Source of the DNA: a virus
Virus record (IMG/VR): IMGVR_UViG_3300042691_027063
Span: 31,648 to 95,647 of that record
Length of the DNA stretch: 64,000 bases
Direction: 5' to 3' (one strand)
Shown: positions 16,217 to 31,894 of the stretch, piece after piece
Position numbering within the stretch: position 1 is the stretch's first letter
How the letters are laid out: each line of letters starts with the position of its first letter
Translations under genes and position numbers: made by a program
Notes under the pieces: generated by a model
Seen by the model: the letters and a program-made list of their open reading frames with translations, nothing else
What the model was told of the DNA's origin: nothing
Databases searched by the model: none

Positions 16217-18070
16217 TTAAACGATTTCGCAAATTCCGCCAGCCGAACAAGCCAATTGTTCTGCGCGATTAGTATTATCTTCGAACTCCATTACCTTTGT
16301 CAAGTCAATTTCGTTAACCATCTTATTATATTTTTCAAAAGTAGCTTTGTCAGTGTCCTCGAAAGGTGCCTGTTGATAAACAGCATCAGAGAAAGGTAGG
16401 AGACTAACAGCAGCATACTGGAAACGATCTTCCCATAGTCGAGCTAGAAGAGTATCAATTTCTTCTGGCTTGTAATTAATAGTGCAGCTTACGTTATGTG
16501 TATTCTCTCCTGATCTGTGACCAGGAAGTACCCAATTATTGTAGTAATGTTTCACTCGATCGAAGAGACTAAGAGCTGACTCTTGATGACGAGTAATTGC
16601 ACCTGCTGGAGATTCCTGTGGGATAGTAACTACAACGCCACTTGGACTAAAAATGTCAGCCTCTACTAGCTCTGGGATAACTTTACTCAAATATCGAGCA
16701 AGTTCATCATCTTTATTCATTCGTACACGACGCAAGTAATACTCACTGTGGCGAGCGTGGATTCCCGAGCTAGACCCAAGAACGCAAGAAGCCGTTCCTT
16801 CAGGCTTAATAGCAGTAGTTCTTGCGGCGATATTGATACCAATTTTGCGGGCATATTTTTCGTTGACTTCAAGTACCGTTCTAGCCGCAGCTTGGAGCTG
16901 ATCGGCAGATAACCCGGGGGAATCCGCGATACCAGTGAAGGAGCAACCAATAAGTGCTTCTTGTTCAGTAACTGTTCTCCATCTTTCTGAAAGATAAGGG
17001 AAATCAGTGAAGCCAGCCTGGAGAGTTCCCAGAAGTGCGGCTGCATATACACGATTGTGAAAGTCTTTGTCATTCTTGATGCCAGTTAGATTTGTAGTGG
17101 TAAGATTGCAGAACTGATTCGATCGAAGACCGATCTCTGCACATGGGTTTGTTCCCCAATCCATATCATTAGTGAATACAAAACCGGGTTCGCCAGCGTT
17201 AGAAGCAATACACATATCAAAAACGTGCTTAAACTCTTCATAAGTAACCTCGTGTCTTGGTAATACTGCACTATTGTTAGCTCTGGCTCTGTGAGGATGA
17301 CGCTCCCACCAGTTACCATGCTTACATGTTAGCATATCATTGTCGTCTCTGTCGAATAAAGCGATAAGTGCTGCTCTACGAATACCTCCAGATAGTACAC
17401 AGTCTGCAATCAGACAAATCATATCGTGAGTTTCTAGAGTTGTTAGCTTTCTTCCTACCGCTTTCTTTAGAATAGCTTCTACTTTTTCAAGCATTGCTTT
17501 AAGAGGCTCAGGTCCAGGAGCTTTTGCTCCAGTAGTTACAAGATAAGAACCCTTCTGACGGACTCTGCTGAAGTCAAATACAGGTCTAATAGCACCGAAT
17601 AGATATGCGGAGATAAGTTGGTTAAGCGATTCAGCCCAGCCTTCAATGGAGTCATGAACAACATAGATTCCTTCCTCTTTTGGTTGACGTACAGTAGGTA
17701 GTTGTCCTACGTGACGTTTTTGTACTGAATATCCAAAGCCAGTTCCTGATAGTAGTAGGAACAAAGCTTCCGCAAAGATACGCGGATATGTAATGTTTGC
17801 AAATGAACAGTTAAATAGTCGGACATTATTTCTAAAGATAGCTTCCCCTCCAAACTGTAGGGAACGCATAGATGGCATTACGTTAAAGTCATGTAGTTGT
17901 TTACCAGCTTTAAGAATATCTCGACTTAGCTTTGGGTATTTATCAAGAAACATATGAAGGTTTCTATTCAATGTTTCTTCTAAAGTCTCTCGTCGATTCA
18001 AATGATTTAAATGTTTAGCGTATGTACGATATGCAACAATTTCTGACAATAGACGATTAGACTTATTCAC
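16217..18070 (-). CDS. nrdJ: class II (adenosylcobalamin-dependent) ribonucleotide reductase
   Basis: PSMRSL, FNCSF, GGIRRAA, TNPCAEI, KPEGT, C-terminal ACSAGGICEI; no beta subunit seen. Confidence 0.9.
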   Translation of the reverse strand: MNKSNRLLSEIVAYRTYAKHLNHLNRRETLEETLNRNLHMFLDKYPKLSRDILKAGKQLHDFNVMPSMRSLQFGGEAIFRNNVRLFNCSFANITYPRIFAEALFLLLSGTGFGYSVQKRHVGQLPTVRQPKEEGIYVVHDSIEGWAESLNQLISAYLFGAIRPVFDFSRVRQKGSYLVTTGAKAPGPEPLKAMLEKVEAILKKAVGRKLTTLETHDMICLIADCVLSGGIRRAALIALFDRDDNDMLTCKHGNWWERHPHRARANNSAVLPRHEVTYEEFKHVFDMCIASNAGEPGFVFTNDMDWGTNPCAEIGLRSNQFCNLTTTNLTGIKNDKDFHNRVYAAALLGTLQAGFTDFPYLSERWRTVTEQEALIGCSFTGIADSPGLSADQLQAAARTVLEVNEKYARKIGINIAARTTAIKPEGTASCVLGSSSGIHARHSEYYLRRVRMNKDDELARYLSKVIPELVEADIFSPSGVVVTIPQESPAGAITRHQESALSLFDRVKHYYNNWVLPGHRSGENTHNVSCTINYKPEEIDTLLARLWEDRFQYAAVSLLPFSDAVYQQAPFEDTDKATFEKYNKMVNEIDLTKVMEFEDNTNRAEQLACSAGGICEIV

Positions 18071-22586: not shown

Positions 22587-22775
22587 TCAATCCTTTATGT
22601 ATTTAAATTCTCTACAAACTGGTGGTTTCATTATCCAACTATTAATATACCACCAGTTATAAATACTTCTATCATTTTCTACCGATGTTCCGCAATTCCC
22701 AATTAGTAATAAAAACTTAAATCTAATTCTTTCATTTACTCCAATTTCTTTATGGTCGAACTGGTAAATTCTCAT
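22587..22775 (-). CDS. Q-motif microprotein family member
   Basis: MRIYQF...FKFLLL. Confidence 0.6.
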   Translation of the reverse strand: MRIYQFDHKEIGVNERIRFKFLLLIGNCGTSVENDRSIYNWWYINSWIMKPPVCREFKYIKD

Positions 22776-23505
22776 TGATGTACTCCTTCATTGCAACTAC
22801 CCAACGCTGGGCATTATTAGAGTTCAATCCTGGTGCTGAGTTTACTTCACAAACAAAGAAGTTACCATCCTTATCTCGAATCAAATCTACTCCACCAAAT
22901 AATAAACCAAGAGCATTTACTGCATCAATTGCAATTTTTTGACCGACTTCATTACATCGACTTCTTGTAGGATTGACGAGACTAAAGTGGCAGTTATGTG
23001 ACTTGAATAAAGCGGGTCGTTCGTAGTTTTCTTCATTGATATTATTAGGAATCTTTTCGTAAATGGCTACGATCTTGGAATTGAAGACATGAACTCGATA
23101 CTCTCTCCTCTTATTTGGAATTGGCTTAGAGGCATACTGATCTGTTACTGGATTGAAGTCATTACCATAACGAACTTCACCTTGTCTCGATCTGATATAG
23201 TAGTTATTAGTTGTATCTTTTACTGAATCAATGCTAGTTAATTCTGTAGTAAATACAGGCATTGGAATATTTGCAGCAGAAAGTAATTGCATCATTCTTA
23301 GTTTATTGCTAGCGTTTAATACCGCCTCTGCTGTATTAAGTTCTAGTCTAGCTGTAGTCCTATTGAATACCTCAGAGCTACCCCAACGAATAAGAACATC
23401 TAATTTAGCACGACGCTGTGTTTTCTTTCTAGGACAGGAAAGAATCTGACGAAGAAGCTTTCCAGTGTTGGATGATTTAGAATGGTAGGCAATCATTGTT
23501 TTCAT
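22750..23505 (-). CDS. ATP-grasp ligase (RimK-like, phiEco32-type)
   Basis: LIRWG, NASNKL, REYRVHVF, ALGLLFGGVD, EVNSAPGL. Confidence 0.85.
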   Translation of the reverse strand: MKTMIAYHSKSSNTGKLLRQILSCPRKKTQRRAKLDVLIRWGSSEVFNRTTARLELNTAEAVLNASNKLRMMQLLSAANIPMPVFTTELTSIDSVKDTTNNYYIRSRQGEVRYGNDFNPVTDQYASKPIPNKRREYRVHVFNSKIVAIYEKIPNNINEENYERPALFKSHNCHFSLVNPTRSRCNEVGQKIAIDAVNALGLLFGGVDLIRDKDGNFFVCEVNSAPGLNSNNAQRWVVAMKEYINENLPVRP

Positions 23506-23686
23506 TTTTAACCTTCGCTTCTAACTTAGCTGTGAAACTATATCGATGTTTCTCTATCGATTCATTATAGAAATCTTTTTTATTAATCTGTTTGATTAAA
23601 CAAATATGATTAAGAATTCTACCAAAAGACAATTCGTACACAATGAGACGAGAATGGTCTCTCATTTTATACTGAACGATTTCCAT
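23477..23686 (-). CDS. Q-motif microprotein family member
   Basis: MEIVQY...LSFGRI. Confidence 0.6.
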   Translation of the reverse strand: MEIVQYKMRDHSRLIVYELSFGRILNHICLIKQINKKDFYNESIEKHRYSFTAKLEAKVKNENNDCLPF

Positions 23687-23687
23687 A

Positions 23688-23852
23688 TTAGTTCACCTTA
23701 TAAAGTTCAATAAGTTGATCGTCAAAAACCCAACCACTAATACTGTCACATCCAAGACTCCCCCACCTATCATCGTATTTATTTTTAATCCAAAATAATA
23801 ATTGTCTTGGTCTACTATAGAAAGAGTTATTTTTTAATTGACATATCTTCAT
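23688..23852 (-). CDS. Q-motif microprotein family member (not in ORF track)
   Basis: MKICQL...LLFWIK, 54 aa, AAGGA SD. Confidence 0.6.
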   Translation of the reverse strand: MKICQLKNNSFYSRPRQLLFWIKNKYDDRWGSLGCDSISGWVFDDQLIELYKVN

Positions 23853-23854
23853 AT

Positions 23855-25063
23855 TTATCCTTTAGCTTCTCCATAAGCAGAATTAAATACAAATTCAATC
23901 TCATCTACAACATCTTGGAAATCATCGAACTGCCAAGTATCTTGACGAAGATGAGTTGGAAGACATTCATACATATAAGAAAAATTACATCCGAACTCAG
24001 CGTCATACTCATATAGTCGATCGATCAATGGTTCGTCAACGTCATAAAGGAAATCGAAAAGATCGGCGATGTTATAGAACTGTTCTCTTTCTGAGACCTG
24101 CGATAATACCTGAGTCTCTTCTCTCTCTGATTCTTTCTTCGAGGGTTTTGAAGGATTCATTGGTAGAAGGTAAGCTTGACTTTTTTTTTCTGGCTGACTT
24201 GCTTTTCCAGACATACGCTCCCAATCGAATCCGCCGTAGTAATTGCCTCGGCTATTGAGAACCGAATCATTTAGCTGCGTTTGAGAAATAAGCTGACCAG
24301 TTACAGCATTGAATCGGAATAACTTATTTTCTTTAATCATTGATGGTTTTGTAAATTCAAGTCCGAGCTTTGTTGCTGTTGATGTGATGATGTCGGTAGT
24401 CGTTGCCATTACTATTCCGAATCCTTCGATTTGTGAATAATATAACCCCGCATCATTACGAATAACGTCAAGAATGCGAGTGCCGTCAGAGTCCCGAGTA
24501 AGAATACCAAACGCCCAATAACCAGAAAGAGTGTTAAGCCAAGCTTGCGCATTGGAAATATCCTTACCTACGTTATGATTGATATATGATTGCAACGCTG
24601 CCTCTGAATCGCAAGTAGAAATTTTATTAAGTCCAAGTGTAAAAGAGTTACTGATAACTCCGTTATGTACTAGAGAATGATCTGCGTCAACGAATGGGTG
24701 TGTATTGGCGAACTCTTTTCCACAGGTAGCATAACGTGTGTGCATTGTTACTGTCGTAACATTTTCAAATGTCGGAACATCTACACCAAACAAAGAATAG
24801 TTTTGATCGATGTTAGTATATTTAGACAAATGCTTTTTATATGCAAGAAGTTCTTTAGCAATCTTCTCATCTCTAATTGCGTCTCGATCAAAGAACAAAT
24901 CGTTATCATGCCATCGCTCAGTAAAGAAGTTACCATCATTCTTTACTGCACTATAACCAATTCCCATGTTGTTACCAACAGACATTGGAACCTTAGCTTC
25001 TAGCATAAATTTTTCAGTTAGCGATGGATTCTTAAGACCTGTCATAAGTAATAATCGACACAT
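23855..25063 (-). CDS. class II (Ntn) glutamine amidotransferase
   Basis: N-terminal MCR, HTRYAT, NTHPF, HNGVI, CDSE. Confidence 0.85.
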   Translation of the reverse strand: MCRLLLMTGLKNPSLTEKFMLEAKVPMSVGNNMGIGYSAVKNDGNFFTERWHDNDLFFDRDAIRDEKIAKELLAYKKHLSKYTNIDQNYSLFGVDVPTFENVTTVTMHTRYATCGKEFANTHPFVDADHSLVHNGVISNSFTLGLNKISTCDSEAALQSYINHNVGKDISNAQAWLNTLSGYWAFGILTRDSDGTRILDVIRNDAGLYYSQIEGFGIVMATTTDIITSTATKLGLEFTKPSMIKENKLFRFNAVTGQLISQTQLNDSVLNSRGNYYGGFDWERMSGKASQPEKKSQAYLLPMNPSKPSKKESEREETQVLSQVSEREQFYNIADLFDFLYDVDEPLIDRLYEYDAEFGCNFSYMYECLPTHLRQDTWQFDDFQDVVDEIEFVFNSAYGEAKG

Positions 25064-25254
25064 CAATAATTTCCTTTGTTTAATTTGATAATAGATATAA
25101 TTCCATTTCTTAGAGTTATCTTTTGTTTTAAACCATTTGGTTGAAGCATATCATAATCTTTTGATATGACCATACCATTTAAGTATAAAGTAGAAGATGT
25201 AATTTCACTACAAGCGTCAGAATATAGCGGGTCTGGTAGACTGAGAGTCAATAG

Positions 25255-25291
25255 CAGAGTGTTCTGGAATATCTCTACTCCAGAACCTCTG
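25255..25291 (-). other. long hairpin with GAGA tetraloop
   Basis: CAGAG-GTTCTGGAGTA-GAGA-TATTCCAGAAC-A-CTCTG just downstream of the amidoligase stop. Confidence 0.55.
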
Positions 25292-25309
25292 TAATAAAAG
25301 AACTTGATT

Positions 25310-26716
25310 TTAGGCTGCTTCGAACTCTTCGTTGCCGTTCTCATCGATTCGAGATGAAACGTAGTCCATAGCAACTTTAGGGATAGATGGAGCCACCGAA
25401 GAAAGTTCCGTAATTGTCTCCATTTTCTTTGTAATAAGTTGAGCATTGTTCACTACTCCGATAAGAAACTTACACCAGTTAATAATCTGAACACAGTTTA
25501 CTGTACCCTCGTGAACTCGAATCTCAAGAGTTTGGAACTTCTTAAATGCGTGAGTGTTAATAACGCTATATCTTTCAGAATCGTTACGCTCCTGTGTTAC
25601 TTTGAAAGAAGAGTTTTTATTTGGTTTACAGTATGTATTTAGCTGTCTATACTCAGGTTGAGCTTTACGCATTAGACTCATTGTGTTAAACAATGCAGCG
25701 TATGAAGTCTCTGCGTTTCGAGTTCTGTGATCGAGATGAACGTGCAATCCACAAGATCGGTTTACAAGTGCATTGATTTCCTTGTCCCGTAGAACTTTTT
25801 GGATTCGCATTAGGACATTTTCTAGCTCATCTTCCGAGACTAAAACTCGAATTTCGCAAGAGAAATAATTCGGTGCATCTACATTGATCGAACCATCATC
25901 TGTAACATTGACATACTTATGAAGGCGAGCTTCGATGAATTTCTTCTTAAGCTTGTCACGACCACCCTTAACGATACACTCAATCTCGATACCAACATAT
26001 TTTTTATTTGGATCGGAAGGAACTTTGTTTTGCTCAATAAAAGTAACAAGTCCTTGCTCAAAGATTTTACCATAAACATTGGATTCAACATTGATGCCAC
26101 CCAACTTACGAACCTTAACACCTTGAACTTCTTTGACTGTCTCTTTTAGAACATTAGCTCTACGCTGTTCTGTGATAAGAGAGGCAAGGTGCATCTCTAA
26201 CTCTTCTTTTTTGTCAGCTAGAGAAGTCTCAACTTCTACAACTCGCTTGAGCTTATCAACATAAAACTTTGTAGTTGCTGGATTTAGAGCAGATGAGATG
26301 GCGAGTTCAATTTTCTCAATCTCAGCAGCGTTCGCCTTCATTGTCCGACCATTTGGCTTATACTTTAGAGCCAAACGCTCACGCTTTTGACGAAGAAGTG
26401 AAAGCTCTGTTTGCAATTGACTCACATCAATCTTATCTTCAATCTTTCGATAAGCAATGGTTCGTTTACATACAGCAGGTTGACAATCTGCAACTCTGAG
26501 AATTGGATTTCCTTGAACCTCTGGAACATTGAGAACTTCTACCTCAATGATTTCACCATGATAGCTATGCTTATCAGTTCTAAGAACTTTGAAAAGCCAA
26601 TCACGCATAATACCAACATAACCTAGCTGACCGAAATGACCATCTAGTTTGAAATTTTCAGCGAACATAGATGGATTAAGACGGATAACAGAACCAACTT
26701 TAATTTGATTTGACAT
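25310..26716 (-). CDS. putative COOH-NH2 amidoligase (phiEco32-like) with N-terminal coiled coil
   Basis: GIEIE, DDGS, EIR, SCGLHVHLD, RYSVIN, TLEIRVHEGT. Confidence 0.85.
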   Translation of the reverse strand: MSNQIKVGSVIRLNPSMFAENFKLDGHFGQLGYVGIMRDWLFKVLRTDKHSYHGEIIEVEVLNVPEVQGNPILRVADCQPAVCKRTIAYRKIEDKIDVSQLQTELSLLRQKRERLALKYKPNGRTMKANAAEIEKIELAISSALNPATTKFYVDKLKRVVEVETSLADKKEELEMHLASLITEQRRANVLKETVKEVQGVKVRKLGGINVESNVYGKIFEQGLVTFIEQNKVPSDPNKKYVGIEIECIVKGGRDKLKKKFIEARLHKYVNVTDDGSINVDAPNYFSCEIRVLVSEDELENVLMRIQKVLRDKEINALVNRSCGLHVHLDHRTRNAETSYAALFNTMSLMRKAQPEYRQLNTYCKPNKNSSFKVTQERNDSERYSVINTHAFKKFQTLEIRVHEGTVNCVQIINWCKFLIGVVNNAQLITKKMETITELSSVAPSIPKVAMDYVSSRIDENGNEEFEAA

Positions 26717-26792
26717 AGACAATACCTCCGAGTTATGTCAATTATTATTTACATTTTCATTGGAGTCAATACCCCAAATTTTACCTTCATGT

Positions 26793-29932: not shown

Positions 29933-29968
29933 AAAAGACAAGCTCCCAAGCTATTAAGCTCAGGAGCC
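29933..29968 (-). terminator. probable rho-independent terminator
   Basis: GGCTCCTGAGCT-TAAT-AGCTTGGGAGCT then TGTCTTTT. Confidence 0.6.
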
Positions 29969-30078
29969 TAGAGGTAGGGTATAAACAATTGATTTCATTT
30001 AGGTCGGCTTGACATAGCCATGACATCAATCGTTTGACAATATAAATTTTGAAGGTTTGCCTTTATTTACCTACAATT

Positions 30079-30246
30079 TCACGCTATGCGAGCGGCTAAT
30101 TCTTTCTTAGCTAAGTATCTAGTCTTTGCTTCTAATCCAATATAATCATAAAATCTAGGCTTATTATTTCCTGTATAAAAAGTCCAAGCATTATAAAATT
30201 TCCACTTACCATTAACATATACAGCATAAAAGTTATATGGTCTCAT
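30079..30246 (-). CDS. small early protein directly downstream of hammerhead 2
   Basis: MRPYNFYAVYVNGKWKF..., 55 aa; SD AAGGA is the 3' strand of hammerhead stem III. Confidence 0.65.
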   Translation of the reverse strand: MRPYNFYAVYVNGKWKFYNAWTFYTGNNKPRFYDYIGLEAKTRYLAKKELAARIA

Positions 30247-30251
30247 TTTAT

Positions 30252-30304
30252 TTCCTTTTCGTTCTTTTGAACTCATCAGGTAAGACATACATCTTACGAA
30301 GGAA
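30252..30304 (-). ncRNA. type III hammerhead ribozyme
   Basis: UUCCUU-C^-GUAAGAU-GUAU-GUCUUAC-CUGAUGA-GUUC-AAAA-GAAC-GAA-AAGGAA; all three stems pair, core intact; predicted cleavage between 30298 and 30297. Confidence 0.9.
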
Positions 30305-30607
30305 GGGGAGATTTTTGCCTCCCCGCTTCTAACCAATACCCTTCATTCCCATGTCAGGTATCAGTCCTAGTGATATTAGCCGTTTATTTGTGGTTCACAC
30401 CTTATTAGCTAAATCACGCCCAAGAAAAAGAATAGTTTAGCCTGATCTTTTTCCGGTGAACATAGGTAGCCTCTCAGCTCGTCTTGTTGCGCAAGGACGC
30501 TCTTCTACCTACTGCCAACTATTTGTTGGACTTTCTTTTGATTATTTTTGCTGCATCCGTACAGCCTAATTAGTTTTTTAGACTCATCAGGTAAGGCTCC
30601 ACCTTAC
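30298..30607 (-). ncRNA. predicted 310-nt RNA released between two hammerheads
   Basis: Bounded by the two cleavage sites; no ATG-initiated ORF longer than 8 codons; many stems. Confidence 0.6.
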
Positions 30608-30631
30608 GACGGCTGTTTAGCCGTTTCGTCT
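30580..30631 (-). ncRNA. type II hammerhead ribozyme
   Basis: AGAC-GAA-ACGGCU-AAAC-AGCCGU-C^-GUAAGG-UGGAG-CCUUAC-CUGAUGA-GUCU; predicted cleavage between 30608 and 30607. Confidence 0.9.
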
Positions 30632-30650: not shown

Positions 30651-30923
30651 CTACACTTTTTTTACAAGCACAATTTTAGCAGATTCTTTTTCTTTTTTTG
30701 CTTTTCTTACTTGCTCCCGCAAATAATCAAGCCGTGCTCGCTCATTAGACTTCATGTAATGTCCATTGTCAATGAGTCTTTTTTCATTTGTCACTACTCT
30801 ACCCCATTGAGAGTGTAAGTTAGCGCCAGCTTTAATACAGCTCTTTGTTTTTTCTGCATTTTTAGCTGCCTTAAGCTGCGCTTCAATCTTTTTTTGAAGC
30901 AGCATCTCTTCTCTAGTCATCAT
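30651..30923 (-). CDS. basic early protein
   Basis: 90 aa, GAGGTG SD. Confidence 0.7.
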   Translation of the reverse strand: MMTREEMLLQKKIEAQLKAAKNAEKTKSCIKAGANLHSQWGRVVTNEKRLIDNGHYMKSNERARLDYLREQVRKAKKEKESAKIVLVKKV

Positions 30924-31093: not shown

Positions 31094-31196
31094 CAAAAAA
31101 ATAAAGCTCACTCAAAAAAACTGCAAAATTTCCACTTGTTTCAATAACTTACGAGGCATCTCTAAAGATAAAAAATACTGCGTATATTCTATGGGT

Positions 31197-31422
31197 CTAT
31201 GTGAATTCAATAACTTAAGAAAGCCCACTATATCTAACCATATATATAAGGATAGACCTATGTAAATTCAATAGCTTAAGCATGGATCTATATAATATCA
31301 ACTAGATAGCATCTGGATGTATGTAAATTCAATAGGTTAGGTTAAGTGTCTAGGATGATGTATGTGAATTCAATAGGTTAGTGTGAGAGAGGTATAGGAT
31401 GTATGTAAAATCAACTACTTAG
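31197..31422 (+). repeat. array of five ~21-bp direct repeats (IHF-like or iteron)
   Basis: TATGTRAAWTCAAYWRSTTA starting at 31198, 31259, 31320, 31361, 31402. Confidence 0.8.
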
Positions 31423-31894
31423 CTCTGTTTCCTAACTCTCCTATCCGTTGCTATACCATGCCATAATGCCATAATAATCTCAGTATGTTGGAATTATATT
31501 ATATTGCTGAGTGTATGGAGAATTAATCACTCCTCATCTCCTAAGGTTCTTCTCCTCTCTTCAGTTGCCCTTTAAAAGCATTTTACCCCATCATGGCGAC
31601 ATAGGTATAGCCCGCACCTTAAAAACGCCGTATAAGCCCGAGTAGGGGCATTTAACGCTTGTTTGGTGTATCGAACAGTCGGTCGGTCAACCAACTATAG
31701 GATAGCCCGTCAAAATGTTGTATATATATAAGGACAACAGTAGGTTGAGTCAAACAACAGTTGTATGATATGCCAAACAGTAGGTAAGTATGTGAAACTA
31801 GATGGGAAAAGACGAATGATGATGCCACCCCTATGGGTCCGCGATGGTCACGGGTGCTTGTATATCACACACATATACCTCAACATTTCAAATA

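Follow-up and report, generated by a model that had tools for sequence, protein, structure and literature searches.

Predicted hammerhead ribozymes on both sides of a conserved non-coding RNA in a group of uncultivated phages

Phage ribozyme clusters and related systems

Type II hammerhead ribozymes were described in nature by Perreault et al. 2011, together with multiple hammerheads flanking genes of prophages and phages (PMC3088659). Processing into single-gene mRNAs, splicing, or the formation of circles was proposed for these arrangements; spliced and circular products were looked for, and neither was detected (PMC3088659). Cleavage of other phage hammerheads has been shown both in vitro and in E. 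coli (PMC3088659). The role of clustered bacterial and phage hammerhead, twister, and related ribozymes is largely elusive (PMC6765202).

The locus described here was found in a window of 64,000 nt, which is the whole stretch of phage DNA that was analyzed and to which all coordinates refer unless another locus is named. It is part of a phage genome of 95,647 bp from an IMG/VR record, rated complete by CheckV. A preliminary description of the window reported two hammerheads on the minus strand around a 310-nt segment and did not recognize the arrangement as a described phage system. This was overstated, since multiple hammerheads flanking phage and prophage genes had been reported in 2011 (PMC3088659). 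The tandem hammerheads of Perreault et al. 2011 resemble the present pair in that several ribozymes (of types I, II, and III) share a strand within one phage transcription unit and occupy its intergenic gaps. They bracket varying protein genes, however, whereas the window pair encloses, always at the same position, a structured RNA that is conserved and free of ORFs. Two more features belong to the window group and not to the loci of 2011: the Shine–Dalgarno sequence of the next gene is situated within stem III of the 3′ ribozyme, and the 5′ ribozyme is apparently exchanged for a twister in one relative. In the work of Roth et al. 2014, as far as it is presented in PMC6765202, twister and hammerhead ribozymes share genetic context, which implies equivalent roles. 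The association given there is statistical, whereas in the window group the apparent replacement is a direct positional one, beside the same gene and the same RNA.

For HHphage, the ribozyme of the haloviruses HF1 and HF2, the 5′ end of a transcript was mapped near the cleavage site (PMC3088659). These viruses carry a single variant ribozyme without a second ribozyme or an excised RNA, and an overlap between a ribosome-binding site and a ribozyme stem was not reported for them, unlike in the window group. Retrozymes and viroid-like RNAs (PMC4918200, PMC7761336) likewise place a few hundred nucleotides of non-coding RNA between hammerhead cuts, with 5′-OH and 2′,3′-cyclic phosphate ends. They are eukaryotic, contain repeated copies of one ribozyme in LTRs or multimers, form circles via tRNA ligase, and replicate or retrotranspose. 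In contrast, the window pair consists of two differing permutations without repeated identical units and is present in one copy per DNA phage genome. Ribozyme–gRNA–ribozyme cassettes, RiboJ insulators, and Tornado are synthetic systems, in which self-cleavage gives exact RNA ends or trims the 5′ UTR. The window module follows the same logic and would be a natural counterpart of these engineered cassettes in a phage operon; synthetic biology reached the ribozyme–RNA–ribozyme design independently. A full-text literature search, covering few subscription journals, found neither a ribozyme-bounded conserved non-coding RNA in a phage nor a ribosome-binding site in stem III of a natural phage hammerhead.

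Genomic setting and the two hammerheads

A blastn search of the locus against the INPHARED phages gave no match, and the major capsid protein was at most 30% identical to that of any cultured phage. Judged from these comparisons, the phage is without a close cultured relative. All sizeable ORFs leftwards from approximately 30.9 kb are encoded on the minus strand, and the structural genes (terminase, portal, and capsid) run rightwards from approximately 32 kb. No tRNA or tmRNA was detected with ARAGORN. An amidoligase, a glutamine amidotransferase, and a RimK/ATP-grasp-like gene are grouped in the early arm (22750–26722, minus strand; PHROG), and a ribonucleotide reductase is encoded at 16217–18070.

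The gene upstream of the ribozymes encodes a protein of 90 aa (30651–30923, minus strand; ORF list), and its stop codon is located 20 nt before the type II hammerhead. The protein is basic, and its gene was found directly upstream of the ribozyme–RNA module in every locus compared. About 50 homologues were detected, none of them with a Pfam domain. A PHROG search yielded only a weak match to an entry of unknown function. The AlphaFold2 model consisted of two helices (pTM 0.30) and was too poor for a fold search, and ESM Atlas returned generic helical look-alikes only. The gene downstream of the ribozymes is an ORF of 55 aa (30079–30246, minus strand; ORF list and sequence), which starts with ATG at 30246 and for which no PHROG match was found. 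An alternative ORF of 85 aa (30336–30079), started with TTG and passing through the type III hammerhead, was rejected in favor of the ATG at 30246, which is preceded by a Shine–Dalgarno sequence. A terminator-like hairpin with a 14-bp stem and a T-rich tail (29939–29970, minus strand), detected in a consensus scan only, is located 3′ of the 55-aa gene and could terminate this short operon.

At 31136–31423 on the minus strand, 5′ of the 90-aa gene, repeats that share the core CTATTGAATT(T/C)ACATA form an array, and some of them overlap sigma-70-like hexamers. These repeats could represent early promoters in tandem or sites bound by a protein. Given the gene order and the promoter-like repeats, the locus could plausibly belong to the first early transcript, as the preliminary description had it; the repeats and the terminator-like hairpin likewise make a short early operon plausible.

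Both hammerheads were recovered on the minus strand by sequence inspection and by a descriptor scan, with the same coordinates and cleavage sites as in the preliminary description. The first of them in the direction of transcription (30580–30631, minus strand) is a type II hammerhead. It consists of AGAC, GAAA, stem III (ACGGCU-AAAC-AGCCGU), GUC with C17 at 30608, the stem I hairpin, CUGAUGA, and GUCU, in this order. Stems I, II, and III comprise 6–7, 4, and 6 bp, respectively; stems I and III are capped, and stem II is open. The second one (30252–30304, minus strand; RF00008 match and descriptor scan) is a type III hammerhead with the order UUCCUU, C17 at 30298, the stem I hairpin, CUGAUGA, GUUC-AAAA-GAAC, GAAA, and AGGAA. 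Its stems I, II, and III are 6–7, 4, and 6 bp long, with stems I and II capped and stem III open; they surround the core with the pairs G10.1-C11.1 and A15.1-U16.1, and the catalytic core (CUGAUGA, GAAA, and UUC^) is complete and in the right order. Every core nucleotide is intact in both hammerheads. The predicted cleavage sites are 3′ of C30608 in the type II and 3′ of C30298 in the type III ribozyme.

The stem I sequence GUAAG...CUUAC, noted before as common to both ribozymes, is indeed present in both. Within each genome, stem I is near-identical between the type II and the type III copy (30591–30607 and 30280–30297 in the window); it is of the UAAGG type in the window and in locus L123 and of the UAGGG type in most others. 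Concerted evolution, a shared tertiary requirement, and common descent are all possible explanations of this similarity.

A purpose-written descriptor covering all three hammerhead permutations was run on the whole 95,647-bp genome and gave just two matches, at 30631–30580 and 30304–30252, which are the two hammerheads described above. In mononucleotide shuffles, 0.245 matches of any quality and 0.01 equally strong matches were obtained per genome. In the comparison with Rfam models suggested in the preliminary description, no match was found in the whole window at gathering thresholds. In E-value mode, the type III hammerhead matched RF00008 end to end with 36.1 bits (E 4.6e-6 in a 701-nt search); this is below the gathering threshold of 48.5, and the score is lowered by the shortness of stem II and its loop. 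The type II hammerhead of the window did not match RF02276 at E up to 10, and its counterpart in locus L121 scored 36.3 bits with this model (gathering threshold 37). In type II hammerheads, loop I commonly forms a pseudoknot with the tail that follows stem II (PMC3088659). Examined by eye, the type II copies contained no convincing loop I pseudoknot, and none was clear in the window; pairing of loop I with the tail could involve only 3–4 A-U-rich pairs, in some relatives.

The scores below the Rfam gathering thresholds, common to both copies, would agree with chance or decayed motifs devoid of activity. Such an origin is hardly credible, considering the rarity of equally strong matches in shuffled genomes (0.01 per genome), the intact state of all core nucleotides, and the conservation of the pair, with covariation, in all relatives.

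Conservation of the module and structure of the inner RNA

Relatives of the locus were recovered by a protein-alignment scan and by DNA-pattern scans. Eight distinct loci had enough downstream DNA for comparison (L002, L118, L119/L120, L121, L123, L124, L125, and L099), and the comparative set comprised nine distinct loci, related by descent. Two candidates from the first protein scan, L003 and L004, were discarded as spurious partial matches within a larger gene. The homologues of the 90-aa protein in the eight relatives were 35–67% identical to the window protein. All eight keep the same order, namely the 90-aa gene, a 5′ ribozyme, 253–438 nt without an ORF, a type III hammerhead, and a start codon; seven of them match the window layout exactly, with a type II hammerhead as the 5′ ribozyme. 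The paired arrangement, which according to the preliminary description was to be sought in related phages, thus recurs in syntenic positions, with differing stems and invariant cores.

Except for the free position N7, no core nucleotide varied among the distinct sequences of type II (ten) and type III (seven). Two to four Watson–Crick pair types were observed at most stem positions, a count that is partly demanded by the descriptor; the measured stems exceed its minimum length. Covariation was found in all three stems of the type III hammerhead, and stem II of the type II hammerhead covaries as well (GUCU/AGAC vs. GCCU/AGGC). Covariation around invariant cores in syntenic relatives bears out the earlier view that these are genuine hammerheads with intact cores and paired stems.

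The relative with a different 5′ ribozyme is L099 (IMGVR_UViG_3300028027_000121), in which the homologue of the 90-aa protein has 38% identity (E 9e-15). The motifs of the inner RNA are retained in this locus, as is the type III hammerhead; a type II hammerhead is missing. At its position (L099:2836–2890), a match to twister-P1 (RF03160) was detected with 46.4 bits (E 2e-7 over 33 kb; gathering threshold 67.2). The twister-like element has P1, P2, P4, and the UAA site and lacks the optional P3. It carries CAC/GUG at the place of the consensus CCC/GGG; these segments presumably pair with each other in the twister fold, and the double change therefore looks compensatory. If real, the swap of ribozyme class would point to selection for cleavage at the 5′ boundary and not for one particular motif.

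The synteny of the module also bears on its possible origin as a selfish or intron-like cassette, that is, a mobile ribozyme pair which removes itself from the transcript together with the inner RNA, after which the mRNA halves may rejoin. Association with mobile elements is frequent among self-cleaving ribozymes (PMC6765202), and recombination or a shared ligation partner could explain the near-identical stem I sequences within each genome. A mobile cassette is nevertheless very improbable here: in all relatives the module is found at one fixed syntenic position, beside the same gene, with a single copy per genome, and no target-site duplication, repeats, or reverse transcriptase were seen adjoining it. 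No relative without the ribozyme–RNA module was found in our scans. Moreover, the flanking cistrons are complete on their own, and rejoining is therefore not needed.

The segment between the two cuts (30298–30607, minus strand) is the predicted 310-nt non-coding RNA. Its non-coding character, assumed from the beginning, was upheld: the longest sense ORF has 14 codons, and there is no conserved ORF. The predicted fold is strong, with an MFE of −95.6 kcal/mol and z = −4.4 relative to shuffles. No credible match to the Rfam 15 families besides the ribozymes was obtained for the inner RNA in the window region and nine related loci. No significant antisense targets were revealed in the phage genome, all matches being at most 15 nt long with E of at least 0.02.

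Several elements of the inner RNA were recognized by comparison of the relatives. Hairpin P2 (30514–30531, minus strand), with the conserved loop AAAUA, was identified in the alignment and was predicted by RNAalifold too. All six of its pairs were changed on both sides among seven sequences, and 90.5% of cells were paired. Helix P3 (UAGGUAG/CUACCUA), identified in the MAFFT alignment, encloses hairpin P4 (30463–30511 for both, minus strand). The P4 hairpin is GAGCGUCCUUG-CGCAA-CAAGACGAGCUG, and the hairpin within the 7-bp P3 is of the form GAGC...CGCAA...GCUG. Compensatory changes were present in all seven pairs of P3 in the structure-blind MAFFT alignment. P2, P3, and P4 were tested together with a hand-drawn structure on a structure-blind MAFFT alignment of seven sequences. 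In this test, 81.5% of cells were paired, compared to 60.8% in shuffles, and 16 of 21 tested pairs were changed on both sides. The covariation score was 0.63 vs. 0.24 in shuffles (0 of 500 reached 0.63) and did not exceed 0.23 with slid partners, for a structure that was drawn from the same small set of sequences as was used to test it.

A near-invariant motif of 19 nt, CUGACAUGGGAAUGAAGGG (P7; 30339–30357, minus strand), was detected by a regular expression and in the alignment, with the consensus CUGACAYGGGARUGAAGGG in alignments. P7 is a hairpin capped by a GGGA tetraloop and interrupted by a 2x2 internal loop of purines, and its pair table shows compensatory changes. Matches to the regular expression were confined to this phage group, apart from two chance matches. 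Scanned with an exact pattern that combined the inner-RNA motif and a hammerhead core, 185,579 prokaryote genomes gave two matches, which were rejected as GC-rich chance occurrences without a hammerhead. A GC-rich hairpin (GGGGAG-loop-CUCCCC; 30305–30324, minus strand) ends 6 nt before the 3′ cleavage site, and every relative has a hairpin of differing sequence at this place. The consensus scan did not flag the window hairpin as an intrinsic terminator. A further helix proposed by RNAalifold, between GYCUA of the retained stem II strand and an internal UUGGGC, is also possible in L099; it was rejected, being without true compensatory change. Taken as a sequence comparison, these data give a clear signal for a structured RNA in the inner segment and not for a spacer of free sequence.

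Predicted products and the ribosome-binding site in stem III

The best explanation of the locus, which we hold with a probability of roughly 0.55, is that the ribozymes release a linear structured RNA, split the operon, and unmask the ribosome-binding site of the next gene. A leftward operon transcript would comprise the 90-aa gene, the type II hammerhead, the RNA of about 310 nt, the type III hammerhead, and the 55-aa gene, and both ribozymes would cleave themselves, after C30608 and C30298. The permutation of each ribozyme leaves only a short open helix between the products (stem II of 4 bp in type II, stem III of 6 bp in type III), and the products should therefore dissociate readily. The first product would be the upstream mRNA, ending in the stem III hairpin with a 2′,3′-cyclic phosphate. 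The second would be the linear 310-nt RNA, with its 5′-OH at the base of the stem I hairpin and its 3′ end, ...CUCCCCUUCCUUC with a 2′,3′-cyclic phosphate, 6 nt beyond the GC-rich hairpin. The third would be the downstream mRNA, starting with a 5′-OH and a compact ribozyme body. Since the hammerheads bracket a non-coding folded segment, a discrete RNA of about 310 nt with 5′-OH and 2′,3′-cyclic phosphate ends is the expected product.

The 5′-OH and 2′,3′-cyclic phosphate ends, combined with hairpins, are poor substrates for 5′-end-dependent RNases and 3′ exonucleases. The released RNA is taken as functional because it is conserved; it would be a folded non-coding RNA that acts in trans or binds a protein, and not a mere spacer. 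Its precise release looks selected, given that the layout recurs in relatives, once apparently with another class of 5′ ribozyme. Sequence and comparison establish the ribozyme motifs together with the conservation and covariation of these, an insert that is non-coding and structured, and the overlap of the Shine–Dalgarno sequence with stem III; cleavage in vivo, stability of the products, gating of translation, and a function of the RNA are inferred. A more far-reaching version is that the phage matures a dedicated trans-acting RNA wholly by ribozymes, possibly as a partner of the 90-aa protein, with an interchangeable class of 5′ ribozyme and with the 3′ ribozyme as a switch of the ribosome-binding site; we propose it tentatively, at somewhat under an even chance.

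The preliminary description considered the 310-nt RNA as possibly circular. A host RtcB-type ligase would join the 5′-OH to the 2′,3′-cyclic phosphate and thus produce a 310-nt circle that does not cleave again. The predicted ends are substrates of RtcB by established biochemistry, and engineered ribozyme-flanked cassettes do circularize in cells. As stated before, and borne out by the sequence, the fragment keeps only part of each ribozyme; it is without the GAAA element and the partner strands, so that a circle would be stable. However, no RtcB or Rnl2-type RNA ligase was found in the phage genome. The predicted folds of the window RNA and of eight relatives contain no conserved helix joining the ends; the 5′ end is part of a separate hairpin, and pairing of the 3′ tail is local. 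The search by Perreault et al., the only published one for circles from tandem hammerheads of phages, likewise gave no circular or spliced products (PMC3088659). A circular 310-nt RNA is therefore not supported and appears improbable, and a linear RNA is the form that we prefer.

The Shine–Dalgarno sequence of the 55-aa gene, AAGGA (30252–30256, minus strand), doubles as the 3′ strand of stem III in the type III hammerhead, where its partner is a UCCUU shortly before the cleavage site. The same overlap was observed in each of the group's seven distinct type III copies; there, stem III has A(A)GGA(A/U) or AGGGAA as its 3′ strand, and the ATG is located 3–10 nt beyond the stem. As one strand of stem III, the Shine–Dalgarno sequence would therefore stay paired with the 3′-terminal nucleotides of the inner RNA until the ribozyme has cut and the product has left, and these two steps would free it for the next gene. 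Hammerhead cleavage is usually fast and constitutive, and the “gating” of translation may for this reason amount to little. Among 113 distinct other type III copies of phages, taken from 111 IMG/VR contigs that carry the stem II and loop II variant of the window, only 4% had a gene start within 16 nt; an ORF of at least 40 aa started 17–35 nt downstream in 78% of them, compared to 15% at random positions. A position in the leader of a cistron is therefore typical of type III hammerheads in phages. By this comparison, the present phage group has moved the ribosome-binding site into the ribozyme itself, which is an unusual placement.

Operon processing could be the whole function of the pair, with a polycistronic early transcript split into separate mRNAs and the 310-nt piece being a structured spacer or a cis leader. 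Prophage hammerheads flanking genes have been interpreted in this way (PMC3088659; reviewed in PMC6765202). The frequency of type III copies just before a gene start (78%), the occurrence of two or more hammerheads in 39 of 110 other phage loci, and a third type II copy about 2 kb downstream of the pair in L002 and L120, directly before a gene start, all agree with it, and our search gave no target or partner for the RNA. Nevertheless, one ribozyme suffices to part two cistrons, and every relative keeps two, 253–438 nt apart. The near-invariant 19-nt motif and the covarying helices were preserved while the flanking protein diverged to 35–67% identity, and the inner segment outlasts the apparent change of the 5′ ribozyme class. 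We therefore regard processing as the sole function as unlikely and favor the release of a conserved linear RNA along with it.

With two fixed ribozymes around a conserved RNA, an apparent natural swap of ribozyme class, and a ribosome-binding site in a ribozyme stem, the locus is an unusually clean case. If the release of the RNA is true, phages would make defined small RNAs by self-cleaving ribozymes and would couple RNA processing to translation. It would also provide a concrete and testable role for the long-unexplained ribozyme clusters of phages, together with a natural ribozyme–RNA–ribozyme cassette.

In locus L002, a perfect inverted repeat of 33 nt was observed between the contig start (L002:1–33) and part of the inner RNA (L002:1290–1322), which probably arose in assembly, at the end of the contig. 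The third type II copies of L002 and L120 (L002:3404–3481 and L120:4755–4828) have no counterpart at a comparable place in the window genome. These copies are situated approximately 1.7–2.1 kb downstream of the pair, after a gene of about 185 aa, and the next gene, with its Shine–Dalgarno sequence and ATG, follows them directly. The exact type III variant CUGAUGAG-NUC-AAAA-GAN-CGAAA, which has the stem II and loop II variant of the window, was detected in 111 IMG/VR contigs of uncultivated phages (L005–L115). At least two hammerheads on one strand were present in 39 of 110 such loci, often 300–400 nt apart around single small ORFs.
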